A DNA stretch of 64,000 bases from Limnochordia bacterium (GTDB lineage: Bacteria > Bacillota > Limnochordia > Darwinibacteriales > Darwinibacteriaceae). A program made the translations under genes and the position numbers. Shown here one piece after another: positions 5,315-34,405 of this stretch (its first letter is position 1; each line of letters opens with the position of its first letter). The notes beneath the pieces were generated by a model that saw nothing but the letters and a program-made list of their open reading frames with translations, searched no databases and had not been told where the DNA came from. The DNA lies in NCBI GenBank assembly GCA_050952265.1, contig JBMNKP010000002.1:65112-129111 (forward strand), in the 5' to 3' direction.

Positions 5315-7083
5315 CCCTCCCAGGAAGCGGCCCTGATCTCGTCCCGGCTGCTCAGGATCTTCTCGGCAAGCCCGTCGAGCTGAGCCTGGATCTGCTCCCG
5401 CTCCTCATGTTCAAGGAAGATCTTCATGATCTCGCTTTCAAAGGACTTGCCAAGGTTGAGGTGGAGGAGGATGGCGTCGAGTTCGCCGATGATGGACTCG
5501 AACATGTTGATCTTCTTGTGCAGCAGGTACATGATGTGTTCTTCCACCGTGTCTTTGGTGATGAGGTTGTAGATGTGCACATCCCGCATCTGGCCTAAGC
5601 GGTGGACCCGCCCGATGCGCTGCTCCAGGCGCATGGGGTTCCAGGGGAGGTCGAAGTTTACCACCAAATTGCAGAACTGGAAATTCAGGCCCTCGCCACC
5701 GGATTCGGTGCTCACCAAGAACTGGGCTTCCCGTTGGAAGAGGTGGCGTACCCACTGTTTCTGACCACGGGACAGGCTGCCATCGAAGGCGAGGGTGCGG
5801 TAACCGGCCCTTTCCAGGCGGTAGCGGATGTACTCCTGCGATGCTCTGTACTCGGTGAAGATGATGGCTTTGTCCGAGAACTGGGCGACCAAGCGTTCCA
5901 GGGCATCGCACTTACTGTTCTGTTTCACCTCGGCCAGGTCCTTGAGGAGCGCGGCTGCCTCCGCCAACTCCGCTTCGGCGAGGCTGGCCATCATCTTTTC
6001 CAGGGTCAGGGCCACGGCCAGGAAGGACGAGCAGACTTCCCGCTGAAGGGTGATCAAGGGCAGCATGCTGCTTGGGCCCGCCCGCCGGCCCCTGGATTTG
6101 ATGAACTCGCTCACCCGTAGGTAGATCTCCTGCTCCCGGGGACCCAGAGCAACGATGATCGGGTGGACGATGCGCTCCGTGAACCTTACCGTGCCCTCCT
6201 CCCGACGGTTGCGGATCATCACTTGATCCAGGAGCTGACGCAGTTCCCTCGGGTTCTTCGGCGTACGCTTGTCAGCCATGAAGCGCCTTTTGAAGGACTG
6301 GTAGCTGCCGAGCTGTCCCGGTTTGATCAACCCGATCAGGTTGTAGAGTTCCTTGAGATCATTCTGCACAGGGGTTGCGGTCAGCATCAGGCAGTACTTT
6401 TTCTGAAGAGAGTTGACCAGACGGTAGCTGGCTGTTGAGCTGTTTTTCAGCTTGTGAGCTTCGTCAATGATGAGCAGGTCATAAACGATACTCTTGACGA
6501 TCGAGGCGTGGGGTTCCCTTTTCGCGGTATCCAGGGAAGCTATGAGCACATCGGCATAGGTCCAATCCCAGGGCGTGCGCTGGATCCCCGCGGCCAGGCC
6601 GAACTTTTCGTAGAGTTCGTAATACCACTGCCAGATCAAGTTAGCGGGAGTGAGGATCAGGACTTTCTTAACCAGACTGCGCAGCATATACTCTGTCAAG
6701 ATAAGCCCCGCTTCGATCGTCTTCCCCAAACCAACTTCATCGGCGAGGATCGCCTGCCCGTGCAGCTCATGGATGACCCGCTCTGCCGTGCGGATCTGAT
6801 GTTCATAGGGGATCACGCCCGTTTCCTGCCAGCGTTCTCTGAGGTGTTCTAAGGCCAGCAGCCCCTGCGTCTGGTTCTGGGCGGCCGCCAGCCGGTCAGC
6901 CCGCCTCGCCAGCTGGTACCATTCCCACGTGTCAAAGCGCCGGGCGCGCAGCTCTTTGACGATCCTGCCGAACCCAGCGGCCTCGATCTGGACTTGGAGT
7001 TTCCCAAGGCAGTACTCCTGAAGGACCGCCGCAGTGTCCTTAGGCGGCCAAGCGCTTGTGGTTTGGGGGAATAGGGGATGCAC
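5311..7083 (-). CDS. yqhH: Snf2/SWI2 family helicase (YqhH-like)
   Basis: The translation has the Snf2 motifs ILADEVGLGKT and LLIIDEAHKLKN plus the helicase C-domain motif QRIGRVHRLGQ. The likely start is GTG 7083, preceded by AAAGAGGAGG; the track ORF begins further upstream at 7128. Confidence 0.8.
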   Translation of the reverse strand: MHPLFPQTTSAWPPKDTAAVLQEYCLGKLQVQIEAAGFGRIVKELRARRFDTWEWYQLARRADRLAAAQNQTQGLLALEHLRERWQETGVIPYEHQIRTAERVIHELHGQAILADEVGLGKTIEAGLILTEYMLRSLVKKVLILTPANLIWQWYYELYEKFGLAAGIQRTPWDWTYADVLIASLDTAKREPHASIVKSIVYDLLIIDEAHKLKNSSTASYRLVNSLQKKYCLMLTATPVQNDLKELYNLIGLIKPGQLGSYQSFKRRFMADKRTPKNPRELRQLLDQVMIRNRREEGTVRFTERIVHPIIVALGPREQEIYLRVSEFIKSRGRRAGPSSMLPLITLQREVCSSFLAVALTLEKMMASLAEAELAEAAALLKDLAEVKQNSKCDALERLVAQFSDKAIIFTEYRASQEYIRYRLERAGYRTLAFDGSLSRGQKQWVRHLFQREAQFLVSTESGGEGLNFQFCNLVVNFDLPWNPMRLEQRIGRVHRLGQMRDVHIYNLITKDTVEEHIMYLLHKKINMFESIIGELDAILLHLNLGKSFESEIMKIFLEHEEREQIQAQLDGLAEKILSSRDEIRAASWEG

Positions 7084-7265
7084 ACCTCCACCTCCTCTTT
7101 GCGATCCTTCCCCGGTGGAGCGGTTCATATGAGGCTGCGGGAGCGATACAGACCCGGGGGCGGGAGGATTTTTCGCCTGGAACGAGAATAGTACTGAACA
7201 TGCCCGCTAGTGTTAGGTGCCGGACGGTCTCCATGTCCCCCGGCCACTGAGGAGGTTACGCTGCT

Positions 7266-8234
7266 ATGTATCGTTACATCATTCGGAGATTCATCTATCT
7301 TATCCCGATGCTCTTGGGGATCTCATCCCTCAGCTTTTTTATCATGCAGCTGGCTCCGGGTGACGCCTTGACCCAGATGGCACTCAGCCCGGATGTTACG
7401 GAGGAGATCATGGAGGCCATGCGGGCACGGTTCTGGTTGGATCAACCGCCGCACATGCAGTACATCCGCTGGATCACCCAATTGCTCAGGGGCGACATGG
7501 GCCACTCTTTCCTGTGGCATGCTCCCGTGACCTGGGTGATCAAACAGCGTGTTTTCAACAGCCTTCTGCTCACCGTGGTTTCGCTGATTGTCGCTTGGGC
7601 GCTGGCCATTCCCATCGGCATTCATTCCGCAGTACATCAATACTCCTGGAGCGACAAGCTGCTCACCTTCTTCGCCTTCATCGGGGTTTCGATACCCAAC
7701 TGGTTTCTGGGGCTGCTGCTCTTGTACCTGAACCTGACGAGGGGCTGGGGTCTGCCCATTGGAGGGATGACCAGCATCGACTTTGACCAGTTCACCTTTT
7801 GGGAGAAGGTGGTCGACTTAGCCCGCCACATGATCCTGCCCACCATCGTCCTCAGCACAGGAACCCTGGCCAGTCTCATGCGTTATATGCGCTCCAATCT
7901 TCTGGACGTCCTGAGGCAGGACTACGTGACCACGGCCCGGGCCAAAGGCCTCGCTGAACGCGTCGTAATCTACAAGCACGCCGTGCGAAACGCCATCAAT
8001 CCCCTGATCACCATCTTTGGGTTTCAGCTGGGCGGCATTCTCGGGGGTGCATCCCTGACGGAAATCGTCATGAACTGGCCGGGTATCGGCAGCTTGATGC
8101 TCAACGCGGTGCAGGGCCAGGATTACTACCTGGTCATGGGCAACCTGGTCATCGGCGCTGTCATGCTGATTCTGGGCAATCTGACGGCGGACATCCTGCT
8201 GGCAGCAAGTGATCCGCGGATCCGGTACGAGTGA
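7266..8234 (+). CDS. ABC transporter permease (OppB/DppB type)
   Basis: The protein has six predicted transmembrane segments, the N-terminal signature RFIYLIPMLLGISSLSFF and a binding-protein-dependent permease core. Confidence 0.85.
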   Translation: MYRYIIRRFIYLIPMLLGISSLSFFIMQLAPGDALTQMALSPDVTEEIMEAMRARFWLDQPPHMQYIRWITQLLRGDMGHSFLWHAPVTWVIKQRVFNSLLLTVVSLIVAWALAIPIGIHSAVHQYSWSDKLLTFFAFIGVSIPNWFLGLLLLYLNLTRGWGLPIGGMTSIDFDQFTFWEKVVDLARHMILPTIVLSTGTLASLMRYMRSNLLDVLRQDYVTTARAKGLAERVVIYKHAVRNAINPLITIFGFQLGGILGGASLTEIVMNWPGIGSLMLNAVQGQDYYLVMGNLVIGAVMLILGNLTADILLAASDPRIRYE

Positions 8235-8246
8235 GGTGCATAGGAC

Positions 8247-9365
8247 ATGACTCTGTTGAACAAGACGAAGGATCAACCTGAGTTTGCGGATAATGGCGGG
8301 GCACTGCGTTCGCCTTGGAAGATGGCCTGGAAGAAACTGCGCCGGCACAAGCTGGCCCTGGCCGGCATGTGGGTGCTCATCCTCCTGCATATCTTTGCCA
8401 TATTCGCCGATTTCTTCGCACCCTACAGCGAGTTGACCACGGACCGCAGGCGGACCTATCATCCGCCGACGCGGGTGCACATTTTCCACGAGGGCAAGCT
8501 GGTCAGGCCTTTTGTCTACGCGTACAAGCGGGTGGACAGCTTGAGGAACATCTATGAAGAAGATACCTCCACCATGTACCCCATCTACTTCTTCGTACGC
8601 GGCGACAAGTATAACATCCTTGGGGTAGAGAGCGATCTGCGCCTGTTCGGCGTCGAAGAACCTGGAAAACTCTATCTGTTTGGCGCAGACCGTTACGGAC
8701 GGGATATTTTCTCCCGTCTGGCATACGGCGGTCGGCGTTCGCTGTTTATCGGCATCATCGGTCTGATCATCAGCCTATCCATCGGTTTGATCTACGGAGG
8801 GGTGTCTGGGTACTTCGGCGGCTGGGTTGACAACATCATGATGCGCATCGCCGAGATCATCATCTCGATTCCCAGTTTCTACCTGCTGTTGGCCCTCAGC
8901 GCAGTGCTGCCCACAAACATACCCTCGGACCAGCGGTTTATGCTGATCGTGGCCATTTTAGGCTTCATCAACTGGGCCGGTCTGGCAAGGGTGATCAGGG
9001 GCATGGTGCTGTCCATAGCCAAGACGGAGTTCGTGGCGGGAGCGGAAGCCATCGGTGCTTCTCAACCGCGCATCATCATCCGCCATATCCTGCCTAACAC
9101 CATGAGCTACGTGATCGTACACGCGACGCTGTCCATCCCCGGCTTCATCCTGTCGGAATCCGGGCTGAGCCTCATCGGGGTAGGAATCCAGCATCCGGTG
9201 GCCAGTTGGGGCAACATGCTCTCCGAGGCGCTGAACCTGTCGTCGCTGACGCGCTATCCGTGGCTTTTGGTACCGGGGTTTTTCATCTTCATAACTGTTC
9301 TTTCTTACAGCTTCTTCGGCGACGGCCTGCGTGATGCCCTGGACCCGAAAAGCCGGACGACGTAA
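8247..9365 (+). CDS. ABC transporter permease (OppC/DppC type with long N-terminal extension)
   Basis: The C-terminal two-thirds form an OppC-like permease core (IISIPSFYLLLALSAVL). The long N-terminal extension resembles YejE/SapC-type permeases. Confidence 0.85.
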   Translation: MTLLNKTKDQPEFADNGGALRSPWKMAWKKLRRHKLALAGMWVLILLHIFAIFADFFAPYSELTTDRRRTYHPPTRVHIFHEGKLVRPFVYAYKRVDSLRNIYEEDTSTMYPIYFFVRGDKYNILGVESDLRLFGVEEPGKLYLFGADRYGRDIFSRLAYGGRRSLFIGIIGLIISLSIGLIYGGVSGYFGGWVDNIMMRIAEIIISIPSFYLLLALSAVLPTNIPSDQRFMLIVAILGFINWAGLARVIRGMVLSIAKTEFVAGAEAIGASQPRIIIRHILPNTMSYVIVHATLSIPGFILSESGLSLIGVGIQHPVASWGNMLSEALNLSSLTRYPWLLVPGFFIFITVLSYSFFGDGLRDALDPKSRTT

Positions 9366-26489: not shown

Positions 26490-27023
26490 ATGGCACATGG
26501 AAAAGGGGGAGAGAGATTGGAGCTCAACGAAACTCAAGTAGATCTGCTGATTGCCATCTTAGTACGCTTTCCCTGTGTCGGGACGATACACTGCGAGCCG
26601 GAGACAGGCACGCTGCGCTTGGTCTTTCTGCTCAAAGCACCTGACACGGACTTCGCGCTCTTTGCCAAGCGGTTCCAGGCTCATCTCACCCTCTTCCACA
26701 AGCTGGCGGGGAGACCCGTTAAGACCTCTGAACTGCGCAGGATAGAGACGGAACAGCTGACGGTGGTTGAAGTTGTACGTGACTTGGCAAGCTTTTCCCT
26801 CTCCGAACTGAAGCTGATCGTACAGCTGATGCGGGACAGCTTCCGCGATAGCTTGGTTCAGGAAGGGTCAGATGCAGCCGACGAAGATGCTGCCGAGCAG
26901 GAGATGATCATCGATGCGCTCCTGCGGGAGCGGGCCGAACTGGGGCAGGAGCGCCTCACCGGCTTTCGGGAGAACGGCCGGGTCTTGGTTTTCAGCAGCG
27001 CGGTGGGGGTGGATAGGCAGTGA
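26490..27023 (+). CDS. Hypothetical protein inserted between rny and ymdB
   Basis: The 177-aa ORF has coding-like composition. Its stop overlaps the ymdB start; the start is ATG 26490 or TTG 26517. Confidence 0.5.
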   Translation: MAHGKGGERLELNETQVDLLIAILVRFPCVGTIHCEPETGTLRLVFLLKAPDTDFALFAKRFQAHLTLFHKLAGRPVKTSELRRIETEQLTVVEVVRDLASFSLSELKLIVQLMRDSFRDSLVQEGSDAADEDAAEQEMIIDALLRERAELGQERLTGFRENGRVLVFSSAVGVDRQ

Positions 27024-29905: not shown

Positions 29906-31384
29906 ATGCAGAAGGATCGCTTTGCCGTTGCCAAGCAGCTGGAGGACAACCTGGCAGTGCTGGAAGAGGCCCTTGGCTATGGAGTGACCTTCGATTTGGT
30001 GTTCCGCAGGTTGAGGGTTGCGAACCGCCAGTCGTGCCTCGTCTTTTTTGATGGTTTCATCCAGGATGAAGCGGTAATTCACATTATCCGGGCACTGCAG
30101 ATGGTTCCGCGCCTGGGGGTTACCCTGACCGCGATCAAGCAGGACCTGTGCGATTGGATCCCCTACTTCGAACTGAGCATGGCAGATGACCTGGAAGCCG
30201 CCATCGACCAACTGCTCTCCGGGGCCATGCTCCTTTTGGTGGACGGGCTCCAGGAAGTGGCCATCCTCGATGTACGCCAGTATGTGGTCAGAAGCTCGGA
30301 GGAGCCAACTCTCGAAAAAGTGACCCGGGGCTCTCGGGACGGTTTTGTGGAGACGGCCCTGTTCAACGTCAACCTGATCCGCAGGCGGATCCGCGACCCA
30401 AACCTGCGCTTTGAGGCTCTTCAGGTGGGAAGACGATCAAAAACCGATGTCATCGTCGGTTATATCGAAGACGTAGCCGATCCCAGCTTGGTTCAAGAGG
30501 TGAAGGACCGTATTGGGGCCATCGACCGGGATGCCATCCCCATGGGGGGCAAAAACCTCGAAGAGTACATCCTCGGTACCGTCTTCAACCCCCTGCCCGT
30601 AACTCGCTACACCGAGCGTCCCGACGTTGCTGCAGCCCACCTTTTAGAGGGCCATGTGGTGATCATCGTGGATACCACTCCTTTCGCCTTAATAGTCCCT
30701 GTTACCCTCTGGCACTTCACCCAGCATGCTGAAGAGTATTTCCAGAACCCGCCGGTAGGGACCTATCTGCGCTGGGTCCGGACGGCTGGCATCGTGGGTT
30801 CGCTGGTGCTGCTGCCCCTGTGGTACATTTTGGCCGTGAGCCGCAATCTTCCGCCTTGGATCTCCTTCATCGGACCCAAGGAACCGGGACGCTTGGCCCT
30901 GTGGCTGCAGCTGCTCATGCTCGAGGTGGGCCTGGACCTGATCCGCATGGCCCTCATCCACACACCCGATGCCTTAGCTACTTCTCTTGGTATTGTTGGC
31001 GGTATCATACTTGGCGATCTGGCCGTGTCCATCGGCCTCTTTACGGCGGAAGCGATCCTGTATGCAGCGATCACCGCCATCTGCACCTTTGCCACACCCA
31101 GCATAGAGTTGAGCGGCGCTCTGCGCCTCTTTCGCTATGTACTATTCTTCGGAGCGGTTGTGGCGGGGTGGTGGGGCCTGGGTGCTGGCTTCCTCATCAC
31201 GTTCTTGACCATGGGCTTGACCAAATCCTTCGGCATCCCCTATCTGTGGCCCTTGGTGCCCTTTGACGGTCCCGCCATGCTCCGGGTGCTTCTGCGCTAT
31301 CCCATTCCGCGAGTGGCTGTGCGCCCGCGGCTCACGAAACCCCAGGATCTGCGTGCCCAAGCAAGAGACCGAAGGAGGAGGTAG
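29906..31384 (+). CDS. Orphan GerA-family spore germination protein (GerAA/SpoVAF-like)
   Basis: The GerA N-domain reads NVNLIRRRIRDPNLRF...TERPDVAAAHLLEGHVVIIVDTTPFALIVP and is followed by a C-terminal multi-TM domain. No B or C subunit genes are adjacent. Confidence 0.85.
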   Translation: MQKDRFAVAKQLEDNLAVLEEALGYGVTFDLVFRRLRVANRQSCLVFFDGFIQDEAVIHIIRALQMVPRLGVTLTAIKQDLCDWIPYFELSMADDLEAAIDQLLSGAMLLLVDGLQEVAILDVRQYVVRSSEEPTLEKVTRGSRDGFVETALFNVNLIRRRIRDPNLRFEALQVGRRSKTDVIVGYIEDVADPSLVQEVKDRIGAIDRDAIPMGGKNLEEYILGTVFNPLPVTRYTERPDVAAAHLLEGHVVIIVDTTPFALIVPVTLWHFTQHAEEYFQNPPVGTYLRWVRTAGIVGSLVLLPLWYILAVSRNLPPWISFIGPKEPGRLALWLQLLMLEVGLDLIRMALIHTPDALATSLGIVGGIILGDLAVSIGLFTAEAILYAAITAICTFATPSIELSGALRLFRYVLFFGAVVAGWWGLGAGFLITFLTMGLTKSFGIPYLWPLVPFDGPAMLRVLLRYPIPRVAVRPRLTKPQDLRAQARDRRRR

Positions 31385-31389
31385 CAGTT

Positions 31390-32301
31390 ATCAAGCCCAT
31401 CGGCATCCCACGCGCCCTGTACTTCTTCCAGTACGGCGAGCTTTGGCAGACATACCTTGCGGAACTCGGTTTCGCCGTAACCGTCAGCCCGCCGACGAAC
31501 CGCGAGATCCTCGAACTCGGCCTTGCGGCATGTGTGGAAAGCATCTGCCTGCCGGTCAAGGCCTTCGTCGGGCATGTCATCTTTCTGGTCCGGCATGGGC
31601 TGTCTCTGCTCCTTGTACCCCAGCTGATCAGTGTCTTCAGGCGGGAATGGACCTGTGCCAATCTCCTGGGGCTGCCAGATCTCGTCAGGCAGTATGTGTC
31701 CGAAGATGTGCGCTTGCTCACTCCCGTCTTGGATGCCCGGCGGAGGGTATCCCAGCACGCCTGGGCATACCTGCGTATGGGTCTGGAGTTCTCTCCTCCA
31801 GCACGCGTCCTGCGGGCATGGCAGAGGGCAAGGGATGCTCAGCAAGAATATGACGAGAGCCGGATCCCGCCAGCCCCTTCTCGAGGCGCTCTGCACGTGC
31901 TGCTCCTCGGTCCGCACTATGTGGCAGCGGATCCCTATCTCAACGGCAACCTTCGGGCGAAATTGGCCGAGTTGGGGGTCCAGGTCAGCATCGCGGCCGA
32001 CTTCCCTGAACCGCTCACGGCTGAAGGCTGTCGTTACTTGCGGAAGCGGCCATACTGGACCAACACCCGCAGGTCAATCGGGTCCCTGGAATACTGCCGG
32101 GATGCCATCGATGGGGTGATCAGCGCGGCTCCCTTTGGCTGCGGAGCCGAGGCTATGCAGAGTGTGCTCATTTCCAGCCATATATCGGAAGCACCCCTGC
32201 CGCACCTACAGCTCTTTGTGGACGAGCACAGTGGTACAGCTGGCCTGGAGACGCGCCTTGAGGCCTTTTGCGACCTTTTGGAGAGGAAAAGAAACGGATG
32301 A
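31390..32301 (+). CDS. DUF2229/HgdB-like CoA-enzyme-activase-associated protein (paralog 1), non-canonical start
   Basis: The conserved N-terminus IKPIGIPRALYFFQYGELW...CVESICLPVK and the C-terminus LFVDEHSGTAGLETRLEAFCDLL are present. No ATG/GTG/TTG exists in frame upstream of 31534. The candidate start is ATC 31390, 9 nt after AAGGAGGAGG. Confidence 0.55.
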   Translation: MKPIGIPRALYFFQYGELWQTYLAELGFAVTVSPPTNREILELGLAACVESICLPVKAFVGHVIFLVRHGLSLLLVPQLISVFRREWTCANLLGLPDLVRQYVSEDVRLLTPVLDARRRVSQHAWAYLRMGLEFSPPARVLRAWQRARDAQQEYDESRIPPAPSRGALHVLLLGPHYVAADPYLNGNLRAKLAELGVQVSIAADFPEPLTAEGCRYLRKRPYWTNTRRSIGSLEYCRDAIDGVISAAPFGCGAEAMQSVLISSHISEAPLPHLQLFVDEHSGTAGLETRLEAFCDLLERKRNG

Positions 32302-33413
32302 AGATCACCTTTCCACACCTGGGCAACCTCTACATAGCAGCGGAATCGCTGCTCAAGGGTTTGGGTCATGAACCGGTGACTCCGCCACCAACGAGCCGCA
32401 GAACACTGGAACTGGGAAGCTATCACAGCCCAGATGAGGTGTGCCTGCCCTTCAAGATCTCTTTAGGCAACATGCTGGAAGGTCTCGCCCAAGGGGCGGA
32501 CGGTGTGCTGATGATCGGCGGCTGGGGCCCGTGCCGTTTGGGTTACTACGCCGAGATCCAGCGGCTGATCCTGAAGGCCTTTGGGAAGCAGGTCGAGTTC
32601 ATCACCTTGGAGGTTCCCAGGGGGCGTTGGGGAGAGTACCTGGGGCGCTTCAGGACGCTGACGGCCTCGACAGATCTGCGCACCTTCTGGCAGGGAGCGC
32701 GCCTGAGCTGGGTCAAGCTGAAGGCGGTGGAGGAGCTTGAGCTGCATGCTGTAAGCGCCCAGCCGCGTGAAAAGAACGAAGGAACCGTTCGCCCCTATCT
32801 CCGGCGCCAGCTGGAGCTTTTGCGCACAGCACAGACCGTAGATGAGGTCCAGGAAATCTGCGATGCAGCCTCCCGCGGCTTCCGAGAACTACAGGCGCAC
32901 GATGCGGTCCGTCCGCTGCGTCTAGGACTGGTGGGGGAGATCTACACCGTGTTGGAGCCTTTTGCCAATCTTCGCCTGGAGGAGCGTCTGGGCAGTTTGG
33001 GCGTGGAGGTAGTGCGCACCATCAGCCTTGTGGAATGGGTGAGGAACCATATCTTCAAAAAGGCAGTGGGCCTGTACAGCCTCGCTCCTCTGCGCCGGCT
33101 GGCTGCGGGTTATCTGCGAGGGTTTATCGGTGGACATGGTCTGGAAAGCGTCGCACGGAGTGTGGCTCTTGCCAGGCAGAACCTCGATGGAATCGTTCAC
33201 ATTCTCCCTCTATCCTGCATGCCTGAGATCGTGGCCAGAGCCATCCTCCCGAGGATCAGCGAGGACCACGGTATCCCAGTGCTCTCCCTTATCGTAGATG
33301 AGCACACCGCGGAAGCCGGTTTTCAAACTCGGCTGGAGGCCTTTGTCGATTTGGTGCAGAGGAGAGTGGAGCGGTTTGAGGGACAGCGGCAGGCCCGTTT
33401 ATCTGGGAGTTGA
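32298..33413 (+). CDS. DUF2229/HgdB-like CoA-enzyme-activase-associated protein (paralog 2)
   Basis: MKITFPHLGNLY...EVCLPFK ... IVDEHTAEAGFQTRLEAFVDLV runs parallel to paralog 1. The ATG overlaps the upstream TGA. Confidence 0.65.
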   Translation: MKITFPHLGNLYIAAESLLKGLGHEPVTPPPTSRRTLELGSYHSPDEVCLPFKISLGNMLEGLAQGADGVLMIGGWGPCRLGYYAEIQRLILKAFGKQVEFITLEVPRGRWGEYLGRFRTLTASTDLRTFWQGARLSWVKLKAVEELELHAVSAQPREKNEGTVRPYLRRQLELLRTAQTVDEVQEICDAASRGFRELQAHDAVRPLRLGLVGEIYTVLEPFANLRLEERLGSLGVEVVRTISLVEWVRNHIFKKAVGLYSLAPLRRLAAGYLRGFIGGHGLESVARSVALARQNLDGIVHILPLSCMPEIVARAILPRISEDHGIPVLSLIVDEHTAEAGFQTRLEAFVDLVQRRVERFEGQRQARLSGS

Positions 33414-34365
33414 TGTGGGCAGTGTGAGCACGAACTTGGTGCTGCTCGATGCTGTGGAACCTCGCCCGTGCATCGTGTGGAAAGCGTACCTGCGTACCCA
33501 GGGCGCGCCCTTAACTGCCCTCAAGAACGGATTGGAGCTCCTTCATGATGCGGGAGCTTGGGAGATCTGCGGAGTGGGGACAACTGGCAGCGGTAGGGAA
33601 CTGGCAGGAGTGGTACTTGGGGCTGACGTGGTCAAAAACGAGATCACTGCCCACGCCTGCGCCGCTCTTGCCATTGACAGCGGAGTGTCCACGATTTTGG
33701 AAATCGGCGGACAGGATTCCAAGTTGATCATCCTGCGGGACGGAGTTGTCGTGGATTTTGCCATGAACACCGTCTGCGCTGCCGGCACTGGTTCCTTTTT
33801 GGACCAGCAGGCTTTCCGTTTGGGTGTTCCCATTGAGGACCTGGGCGAGCTGGCTCTGCGCAGCAGGAACCCCGTGCGTATCGCAGGACGCTGCACTGTC
33901 TTCGCCGAGTCAGACATGGTGCACAAACAACAGTTGGGGGTTGATACAGCCGACATCGTGGCCGGTTTGTGCGCAGCCATGGTGCGCAACTTCTTGGGAA
34001 GTCTAGCCAAAGGAAAAGAACTGCGCCCCACTGTGTTCTTCCAGGGAGGGGTGGCCGCCAATGCGGGCATGCGCCGTGCCTTTGAGGAAGCTCTGGGCCA
34101 GCCGGTTTTCGTGCCCGAACACTACGACGTGATGGGCGCTGTGGGGATCGCCCTGCTGGTCAGGGAAGCACTTGGAGGAAAGGCGGTGCCGACGCGTTTC
34201 GCCGGCTTAGAGAGGGTTCTGGACAGCCAAGTTGCCAGCCAGAGCTATGAGTGTACGGGATGCCCCAACTCCTGTGAGATCTGCGAGGTTTGGCGTGACG
34301 GGATATTCCTCGCGAGCTGGGGGGCGCGCTGCGGCAGGCAGGGCAGAACGGACCAGACCAGCTAG
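33376..34365 (+). CDS. BadF/BadG/BcrA/BcrD-type ATPase (HgdC-like activase of 2-hydroxyacyl-CoA dehydratase-type enzymes)
   Basis: The translation has the N-terminal YLGVDVGSVSTNLVLLD motif, the ASKT/acetate-kinase fold motifs EIGGQDSK and TGSF, and a C-terminal CTGCPNSCEIC cysteine cluster. The start is uncertain: TTG 33376 or an upstream ATG 33298. Confidence 0.8.
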   Translation: MRDSGRPVYLGVDVGSVSTNLVLLDAVEPRPCIVWKAYLRTQGAPLTALKNGLELLHDAGAWEICGVGTTGSGRELAGVVLGADVVKNEITAHACAALAIDSGVSTILEIGGQDSKLIILRDGVVVDFAMNTVCAAGTGSFLDQQAFRLGVPIEDLGELALRSRNPVRIAGRCTVFAESDMVHKQQLGVDTADIVAGLCAAMVRNFLGSLAKGKELRPTVFFQGGVAANAGMRRAFEEALGQPVFVPEHYDVMGAVGIALLVREALGGKAVPTRFAGLERVLDSQVASQSYECTGCPNSCEICEVWRDGIFLASWGARCGRQGRTDQTS

Positions 34366-34377
34366 GAAAACTTGAGA

Positions 34378-34405
34378 GGGTTCTCTGGCAGGAACCTCCT
34401 TTTTA
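34378..34405 (+). terminator. Candidate terminator after the activase gene
   Basis: An imperfect stem gggttc/gaacct is followed by CTTTTTAT. Confidence 0.4.

Follow-up and report, generated by a model that had tools for sequence, protein, structure and literature searches.

A fully split, three-gene counterpart of the large ether-lipid-forming enzymes of anaerobes in a Limnochordia bacterium

Within the 64,000-nt stretch of a Limnochordia contig analyzed here (the window), three genes that overlap one another specify a pair of related iron-sulfur subunits and a protein that injects electrons at the expense of ATP, together representing a three-piece counterpart of the single large enzymes making ether lipids in anaerobes. 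This split module is genuine and very common. With moderate confidence, we assign it to the benzoyl-CoA reductase/2-hydroxyacyl-CoA dehydratase/double-cubane-protein (BCR/HAD/DCCP) superfamily, as a fully split three-polypeptide form of its DUF2229 branch, employing the mechanism and the lipid substrate proposed below.

Gene structure and domain families of the module

All three reading frames are present where a preceding sequence-only reading of this DNA had placed them, and the motifs quoted there are found in the translations. Gene 1 (31390..32301, forward strand) encodes a DUF2229 iron-sulfur subunit of 303 aa that can be equated with the Red1 domain of the fused proteins by Pfam, alignment and fold. 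It matches DUF2229 at an E-value of 7.3e-38, while a C-terminal HGD-D match is weak (19.6 bits, below the cut-off of 28.4), and it bears invariant cysteines at C53 (31546-31548), C89 (31654-31656) and C251 (32140-32142). The gene starts with the rare codon ATC at 31390, as the conserved N-terminus IGIPRAL needs that codon; ATG, GTG or TTG does not occur in the frame before 31534. A relative has ATT at the equivalent position, and the sequence is identical across two independent public assemblies. By direct reading of the sequence, a Shine-Dalgarno element, GGAGGAGG (31374..31381, forward strand), ends 8 nt before the ATC. Directly upstream, a GerA-family (SpoVAF-like) gene (29906..31384, forward strand; Pfam GerA, 8.6e-143) is separated from gene 1 by a gap of 5 nt and has its stop codon inside the gene 1 ribosome-binding region. 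Hence, both genes are probably co-transcribed, with the GerA-family gene being context outside the enzyme.

Gene 2 (32298..33413, forward strand), which overlaps gene 1 in the previously described ATGA junction, confirmed at 32298-32301, encodes a paralogous iron-sulfur subunit of 371 aa equivalent to Red2/PlsR, again by Pfam, alignment and fold. Matches are to DUF2229 (3.5e-09) and to HGD-D (2.2e-07), the latter at 31.2 bits over just some 60 positions of a profile that is 342 positions long. Its invariant cysteines C49 (32442-32444), C79 (32532-32534) and C307 (33216-33218) occupy alignment columns equivalent to those of the three gene 1 cysteines. Genes 1 and 2 had been claimed to be paralogs of the DUF2229/HgdB-like type, and this is borne out at several levels: both match Pfam DUF2229, hhalign profile-profile comparison gives a probability of 99.9% (E-value 1.2e-35), and both AlphaFold models, which are confident (pLDDT 93.6 for gene 1 and 91.8 for gene 2), predict an HgdB/HadC/BzdN-type fold. 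The modeled two-Rossmann-like-domain architecture matches solved members of the BCR/HAD/DCCP catalytic-subunit superfamily (FldB/C fold), and each subunit has the three-cysteine motif of this superfamily, from which binding of a [4Fe-4S] cluster is predicted. None of the NCBIfam models matched either protein, and matches of the DUF2229 subunits to PDB chains do not extend beyond the C-terminal 60 or so residues. The two subunits would be expected to form a heterodimer, in line with naturally occurring proteins of 690-770 aa in which gene 1 and gene 2 are fused.

Gene 3 (33376..34365, forward strand) encodes the HgdC-type activase ATPase. Its start is probably the TTG at 33376, preceded by AGGAGA and giving 329 aa, with the ATG at 33298 (355 aa) as alternative; for either candidate the activase starts within gene 2, as had been noted. 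Likewise, the proposed identity as a BadF/HgdC-type ASKHA activase is corroborated by Pfam BcrAD_BadFG (PF01869; 6.5e-44, 150.9 bits versus a cut-off of 31.5) and by TIGR00241 (170.6 bits versus a cut-off of 125.4). Counted from the ATG at 33298, C160 (33775-33777) and C199 (33892-33894) are 100% conserved in 59 orthologs and align with C127 and C166 of the HgdC chain 1hux_A, which we take to be the ligands of the inter-subunit [4Fe-4S] cluster. A C-terminal Cys4 motif follows, C319-x2-C322-x3-C326-x18-C345 (34252..34332, forward strand), with 97% conservation in the 59 orthologs. The CTGCPNSCEIC cluster highlighted previously stands in part: conservation extends to C319, C322 and C326, as well as to C345, but not to C329. 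All solved activases matched by gene 3 have 243-276 aa and are too short for this extension. The 3' end of gene 3 is followed by a terminator-like hairpin and T-run (34378..34397, forward strand), a weak consensus match in a region where the total count of terminator-like sites is not above chance. The overall scan of the window for sigma-70 promoters and terminators was no better than chance, and an Rfam search of the window found nothing.

Collinearity with fused proteins and distribution of the split form

The Act1-Act2-Red1-Red2 architecture is known from the plasmalogen synthase PlsA/PlsR (PMC9702350, PMC12838417) and from the glycerol ester reductase Ger (PMC13159169). As the sequence-only reading had claimed, the module is collinear with fused proteins of this architecture, which have about 1400 aa, aligning end to end in the Red parts: gene 1 shows 27-31% identity to Red1 and gene 2 shows 23-26% to Red2, while gene 3 best matches Act2 at 45-49%. 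Moreover, the Cys4 motif of gene 3 is of the Act2 type: among 119 fused proteins, it follows Act2 in 118 and Act1 in none. Red1/Red2 collinearity and the Act2-type Cys4 motif are features that the module shares with the PlsA/PlsR and Ger family. Gene 1 and Red1 have 38 invariant positions in common, and only one position is conserved in both yet different. Between gene 2 and the fused Red2, ten positions are conserved in each group yet different, and K53, T344 and R345 are kept by gene 2 and lost from Red2; therefore, specificity may differ. In a neighbor-joining tree (100 bootstraps), the fused proteins form a clade with 100% support and the split proteins fall outside at about 30% identity, the fused sample being narrow and excluding the characterized PlsA/PlsR and Ger sequences (Q8XL48/Q8XL47, Q835P9, AGL49404).

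The statement that these domains are usually fused turned out to be overstated, as stand-alone genes are no less common than fused ones. Gene 1 has 2273 relatives when clusters at 50% identity are each counted by one representative, and the nearest 150 are nearly all of the stand-alone form. Split-form relatives occur in at least 572 species genomes, corresponding to tblastn confirmation at 572 of the 600 pattern matches listed for the species genome set. In the suggested neighborhood survey, gene 1 is followed by gene 2 and then by the activase at 54 of the 63 loci that could be evaluated, which come from many anaerobic phyla. In the window, this arrangement is complete with a sole, stand-alone activase gene downstream of both DUF2229 genes and without a second copy. 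The split module ranks among the more widespread uncharacterized Fe-S enzyme systems of strict anaerobes.

In spore-formers, the module is placed between spoVA genes and lysA, and in related loci a GerA-family gene comes after spoVAC/D/E. The adjacency to lysA was rejected as a functional clue because lysA also lies behind the spoVA operon in Bacillus subtilis, which is not one of the carriers identified for the module. For this context, an unlikely reading is that of a forespore-expressed ATP-driven reductase that remodels the membrane of the forespore, for instance by turning ester lipids into ether lipids, or acts on another spore-specific substrate. The module, lying last in the spoVA region, would then be expressed either by translational coupling to the SpoVAF-like gene or from its own sigmaF/sigmaG-type promoter. 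Upstream of gene 1, a strict sigmaG promoter was matched at only 4 loci, not including the window; enrichment is limited to the looser -10 element. If true, this would be a previously unrecognized biochemical step of sporulation carried out by a split PlsA/Ger relative.

Proposed mechanism and substrate

It is very likely that the module works by ATP-driven injection of low-potential electrons into a two-cluster heterodimer for reduction of a carbonyl group. Gene 3 would form a homodimer holding one [4Fe-4S] cluster between its subunits, with C160 and C199 of each as ligands, and would be reduced by ferredoxin or flavodoxin. ATP hydrolysis by this dimer would then drive the transfer of an electron of very low potential to the putative gene 1/gene 2 heterodimer. 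In each catalytic subunit, a [4Fe-4S] cluster bound by three cysteines would leave one iron free for the carbonyl oxygen of the substrate, and the injected electron would generate a ketyl-type radical, making possible a reduction or dehydration that is very hard to achieve by other means.

The substrate had been called unknown, which is true of the split clade but not of the fused architecture, whose proteins have been characterized as lipid ester reductases (PMC9702350, PMC12838417, PMC13159169) and thus provide a concrete substrate hypothesis. Because each domain of the module has its counterpart in the Act-Act-Red1-Red2 architecture of PlsA/PlsR and Ger, the most likely substrate would be a membrane glycerolipid, whose acyl-ester carbonyl would be turned into an alkenyl or alkyl ether. 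We advance this assignment to a membrane-lipid ester tentatively, by analogy to the fused proteins. In the literature searched, PlsA/PlsR and Ger are the only characterized PF09989 proteins; searches under the database names of the split proteins gave nothing relevant, and a characterized split-form member was not found. Should the module make ether lipids, surveys counting only fused 'BBD' proteins would underestimate ether-lipid producers, which matters both for the 'lipid divide' question and for the use of lipid biomarkers.

The same machinery, an ATP-driven activase with a two-cluster heterodimer, could also act on a non-lipid substrate that strict anaerobes have in common, such as a soluble metabolite, the precursor of a cofactor or a group bound to a protein, and this must be taken as a serious possibility, albeit a somewhat doubtful one. 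The distinct clade of the split proteins and the ten gene 2 sites differing from Red2 point in this direction, as do the contexts in Dehalococcoidales, Coriobacteriia and Helarchaeota, lineages in which the module is accompanied by housekeeping genes (TrxB, DnaB, L9; DnaJ, ClpB; NfnAB-like genes), and the finding that lipid-synthesis genes do not recur beside it. On the other hand, all characterized DUF2229 proteins found in the literature act on glycerolipid esters, gene 1 has almost all invariant residues in common with fused Red1, and the conserved neighbors point to no alternative substrate. Also in favor of the main assignment, CoA-transferase, CoA-ligase and acyl-CoA dehydrogenase families do not recur among the neighbors across 80 loci, a pattern expected of a substrate present in all cells rather than of a CoA ester in catabolism. 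If another substrate is used, the module would add a new substrate class to ATP-driven ketyl-radical chemistry. For biochemistry and structure determination, the three-subunit version would be more tractable than the 1400-aa fusions.

That neither a CoA-transferase nor a 2-hydroxyacid dehydrogenase family recurs among the neighbors in the 80 loci speaks against a classical 2-hydroxyacyl-CoA dehydratase of the HgdAB/HadBC type with its activator, serving amino-acid fermentation. Such a function might be suggested by the weak C-terminal HGD-D matches, the HadC-like fold and the HgdC-like activase, but is very improbable. Neither subunit gives a full-length PF06050 HGD-D match above the gathering score; the HGD-D match comprises only about 60 C-terminal residues, with gene 1 staying below the Pfam cut-off, sequence similarity to PDB chains is confined to the same residues, and gene 3 carries the Act2-type Cys4 extension. 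A reductase of the double-cubane [8Fe-9S] cluster protein type (DCCP/YjiM) with a reductase partner is hardly conceivable, as each subunit has three invariant cysteines versus the six cluster ligands required within a 7-Cys motif (PMC7317905), NF040772 scores 13.2 bits versus a cut-off of 350, and the module would be a heterodimer of paralogs versus the DCCP homodimer. Scores for the class I BCR models TIGR02259, TIGR03192 and TIGR02261 are far below their cut-offs. Taken together, the number of cysteines, the model scores and the genomic neighborhood led us to reject assignment to the DCCP, classical HAD or class I BCR types.

Comparison with known systems

Class I benzoyl-CoA reductases (BzdNOPQ, MbdONQP) follow the same logic of ATP-driven electron injection but employ two different ATPase subunits and an [8Fe-9S] cluster (PMC11971306). 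Also comparable in organization are 2-hydroxyisocaproyl-CoA dehydratase (HadBC with HadI) and 2-hydroxyglutaryl-CoA dehydratase (HgdAB with HgdC), which are, as predicted for the module, alpha/beta heterodimers of paralogs with a [4Fe-4S] cluster on three cysteines each and are served by an ATP-dependent homodimeric activator with a bridging cluster. However, sequence similarity to HadBC and HgdAB is limited to the last 60 or so residues of the module subunits, the N-terminal two thirds of which are DUF2229. In addition, the module lacks CoA-metabolism neighbors, and its activase differs from HadI and HgdC in the extra Cys4 extension.

With PlsA/PlsR (CPE1194/1195 in Clostridium perfringens and single-gene PlsA in Enterococcus, Lactococcus and Bifidobacterium), the module shares an HgdC-type activase, a DUF2229 Red1 and a paralogous Red2, as well as membership in the oxygen-sensitive BCR/HAD family, with conserved cysteines. 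In C. perfringens, too, the Red1|Red2 junction is a gene boundary (PMC12838417). In contrast to the two tandem activase domains fused ahead of Red1 in PlsA, the module has one stand-alone activase encoded by the last gene. In its Red parts, it shares only about 25-30% identity with the fused sequences sampled, and it belongs to a separate clade.

Regarding Ger (Tmari_0479 of Thermotoga maritima and SHJ90043 of Desulfatibacillum alkenivorans), the 'BBD' core of two tandem activase domains plus DUF2229 has been described as conserved in all alkyl-ether producers (PMC13159169), whereas a fused core of this kind is not present in the window. The criterion of the Ger survey, at least 30% coverage of a 1400-aa query, would have missed the split genes. 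Both systems are restricted to anaerobes, the loci examined for the module resemble Ger in having no recurring metabolic partner genes, and the Ger Pfam string B-B-D-H-D-(D)-H (PMC13159169) can be read as two activases followed by gene 1 (D,H) and gene 2 (D,H).

Reading frames, start codons and conserved cysteines

The three reading frames and motifs quoted in the sequence-only reading were found in the DNA of the window and its translations, together with the ATGA overlap between the first two genes. Gene 1 (31390-32301, plus strand, 303 aa) matches DUF2229 (PF09989; 7.3e-38) and, weakly at its C-terminus, HGD-D (the 2-hydroxyacyl-CoA dehydratase family), whereas gene 2 (32298-33413, plus strand, 371 aa) matches DUF2229 with its N-terminal part (3.5e-09) and HGD-D with its C-terminal part (2.2e-07), placing both proteins in the DUF2229/HgdB-like families as proposed. 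Likewise borne out is the assignment of gene 3 (plus strand, ending at 34365) as HgdC/BadF-type activase, with a match to BcrAD_BadFG (PF01869; 6.5e-44) and a score of 170.6 bits on TIGR00241 'acyl-CoA dehydratase activase' (cut-off 125.4).

No ATG, GTG or TTG is present in the gene 1 frame upstream of 31534. As homologs keep the N-terminal IGIPRAL block almost without change, translation must start before this position, and the predicted start is a rare ATC codon at 31390, located 8 nt past GGAGGAGG and three codons ahead of IGIPRAL (31374-31400), 5 nt beyond the stop of the upstream gene. This is exactly where relatives bear ATG, GTG or TTG, and a 50%-identical relative (locus L002) has ATT at the equivalent position. 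Two independent public assemblies (ENA ERZ27245377 and JGI 3300010428) show the identical sequence here; on this DNA, public gene calls shorten gene 1 to 255 or 134 aa and predict an additional, spurious ORF on the opposite strand. For gene 3, a start at TTG 33376, overlapping gene 2 by 38 nt, is more likely than one at ATG 33298 with an overlap of 116 nt (33298-33413), because the conserved core of the long form begins at residue 35, an AGGAGA ribosome-binding site precedes the TTG and the ENA gene call agrees with it. With either codon, the activase starts inside gene 2, as had been noted.

The proposed paralogy of genes 1 and 2 was corroborated by comparing their families with hhalign (probability 99.9%, E 1.2e-35, 290 columns, 22% identity). 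AlphaFold2 models of both proteins are confident (pLDDT 93.6 and 91.8, respectively), and sequence resemblance to PDB entries is limited to the last ca. 60 residues (double-cubane cluster protein, DCCP, and the dehydratase subunit HadC). In gene 3, C160 and C199, invariant among its orthologs, align with the cluster ligands of HgdC (C127 and C166; chain 1hux_A). Its C-terminal motif C319-x2-C322-x3-C326-x18-C345 is 97% conserved, while the solved activases matched by gene 3 all have 243-276 aa, leaving no room for this extension; the ligand of the Cys4 motif would be either zinc or a further cluster. Across about 72 orthologs of each gene, the only invariant cysteines are C53, C89 and C251 in gene 1 and C49, C79 and C307 in gene 2, occupying equivalent alignment columns. 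Dehydratases and benzoyl-CoA reductases show this three-cysteine pattern in their [4Fe-4S] subunits, in contrast to the six to seven cysteines of the double-cubane proteins (PMC7317905).

Distribution and relation to the fused proteins

Two copies of gene 3, gene 1 and gene 2 were joined in this order into an artificial query, which retrieved from the database proteins of about 1400 and 1000 aa bearing PF01869 and PF09989; these are collinear with the module. Gene 3 best matches the second activase domain, Act2 (residues ~320-632, 45-49% identity), with Act1 (~1-290, 42-51%) giving a lower bit score, while genes 1 and 2 correspond end to end to Red1 (~672-980, 27-31%) and Red2 (~1001-1395, 23-26%), respectively. 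Of 119 fused proteins, 118 have the Cys4 motif after Act2 and none has it after Act1, which identifies gene 3 as an activase of the Act2 type.

Split gene 1 proteins differ from one another by a mean p-distance of 0.57, compared to 0.70 for gene 1 versus Red1, 0.76 for gene 1 versus gene 2 and 0.81 for gene 1 versus Red2. Hence, the duplication giving rise to Red1 and Red2 took place before split and fused forms diverged. In a neighbor-joining tree of the split proteins and a narrow sample of fused proteins, the sampled Red1 domains and the sampled Red2 domains each form a monophyletic group in all 100 bootstraps, with the split proteins outside these groups. Gene 1 and Red1 have 38 invariant positions in common and differ at one position conserved in both, compared to 31 and 10, respectively, for gene 2 and Red2. 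K53, T344 and R345 are kept in gene 2 and lost from Red2, so that the two subunits are more alike in the split system than in the fusions.

The domains had been described as usually fused and split here. The split itself is confirmed, but this arrangement turned out to be common: at least 572 loci are among the matches listed when a single genome of each species was scanned (Bacillota, Chloroflexota, Actinomycetota, Helarchaeota and others), and an exhaustive HMMER search gave 2273 cluster representatives at E ≤ 1e-3, the best 150 of which are nearly all stand-alone proteins of 300-350 aa, besides some ten proteins of 690-770 aa in which genes 1 and 2 are fused. Such natural fusions occur in L053 (451-2553), L061 (5976-8126) and L078 (6054-8324) and as representatives P0361 and P0363-P0367. 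The order gene 1, gene 2, activase is found in 54 of 63 evaluable loci; in L052 the activase gene follows gene 1 and precedes gene 2, and L019 has a further DUF2229 paralog, the third in tandem.

Genomic neighborhood and sporulation

Sporulation genes are present in 36 of 80 homologous loci, usually in the order dacF-spoIIAA-spoIIAB-sigF-spoVAC-spoVAD-spoVAE-(SpoVAF-like)-[module]-(TrpB-like)-lysA. In anaerobic spore-formers (L010-L014, L017, L032, L035, L040, L047, L062, L071, L074, L076), the module lies between the spoIIA-sigF-spoVA block and lysA (~6001-9100), which directly adjoin each other in Bacillus subtilis. Such a position points to an ancient insertion into, or loss from, a conserved sporulation locus. 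The module of the window starts 5 nt after a GerA-family SpoVAF-like gene, with YmdB, SpoVS and an M19 dipeptidase upstream and an M50 peptidase, ScpA/B and YtfJ beyond it.

The sequence CATA[ACT]TA, corresponding to the -10 box that forespore sigma factors recognize in the Bacillus consensus, occurs 38-82 nt ahead of gene 1 (in most cases between -38 and -48) in 8 of 19 sporulation-context loci with an intergenic gap of at least 60 nt before this gene (shuffled-sequence control: mean 0.63, maximum 3), compared to 1 of 30 other loci; it is absent ahead of gene 1 in the window. As all eight loci (L013, L014, L029, L032, L047, L062, L071, L073) are Desulfotomaculia-like and non-independent, this enrichment, and with it the sporulation link, is a lead and not a proof. 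The element often follows a terminator-like hairpin, and L032, L047 and L071 also show a matching GHATR -35 box at 18-nt spacing. Two contigs labeled as MAGs of Acidobacteriota (L077, with dacF-spoIIAA-spoIIAB-sigF and spoVAD) and Desulfovibrio (L037, with spoVAD, spoVAC/E and a SpoVAF-like gene) carry sporulation genes typical of Bacillota and are probably mis-binned.

A PLP enzyme of about 450 aa, TrpB-like by sequence resemblance, recurs beside the module in 12 loci, including L010, L011, L014, L036, L038, L048, L054, L062, L074 and L077 (directly after the activase) and L057 (ahead of gene 1), in some cases with no sporulation genes within the stretch at hand. In the non-Bacillota loci L033 (8854-11150), L034 and L056, two adjacent genes resembling, by eye, NfnAB/sulfide-dehydrogenase-type ferredoxin:NAD(P) oxidoreductase subunits flank the module and could provide reduced ferredoxin for the activase. 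Elsewhere in the window, a 177-aa ORF upstream of ymdB (26490-27023) shows no Pfam or NCBIfam match and is kept in position in relatives (cluster c22; L001, L004-L006, L058). The window contains no match to an Rfam family at or above its gathering score. Over its whole length (1-64000), nearly all 2-kb blocks show positive GC skew, with a steady rise of the cumulative skew, and all annotated genes around the module lie on the plus strand, consistent with a leading-strand segment.

Proposed mechanism and comparison with characterized enzymes

If the module works like the solved systems of the dehydratase, benzoyl-CoA reductase and DCCP types (PMC7317905, PMC11971306), gene 3 would form a homodimer with one bridging [4Fe-4S] cluster, taking an electron from ferredoxin or flavodoxin. 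Upon ATP binding and hydrolysis, this dimer would dock on the gene 1/gene 2 heterodimer and inject a low-potential electron, to be held by the two three-cysteine clusters and passed to the carbonyl of a substrate, bound by the iron that has no cysteine ligand. The resulting ketyl radical might then undergo reduction and/or water elimination. Due to its location at the Act2-Red1 junction of the fusions, the Cys4 motif may mediate docking or electron relay. This general mechanism very probably applies and is much more secure than any assignment of a lipid substrate.

The substrate had been left as unknown, but characterized proteins of the fused type (Pfam string BBDHDDH or BBDHDHDH) now offer a testable hypothesis. 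In the literature searched, PF09989 appears in an enzymological context only in the papers on these proteins, namely plasmalogen synthase PlsA/PlsR (Jackson et al., 2021, as related in PMC9702350 and PMC12838417) and glycerol ester reductase Ger (PMC13159169). According to these accounts, both enzymes act on membrane lipids in the absence of oxygen, turning the sn-1 acyl ester into a vinyl or alkyl ether. In the 80 loci surveyed, no CoA-transferase, CoA-ligase, acyl-CoA dehydrogenase or lipid-synthesis family recurs beside the module. This lack of pathway neighbors and the nearly complete set of invariant residues common to gene 1 and Red1 favor a membrane glycerolipid ester, as does the equivalence with PlsA/PlsR and Ger; still, from sequence comparison we consider a lipid substrate possible but somewhat short of an even chance. 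The finding of the sequence-only reading is real and its interpretation essentially right. PlsA/PlsR and Ger are domain-for-domain equivalent to the module, the kind of enzyme is already known, and what is new is the split three-subunit arrangement.
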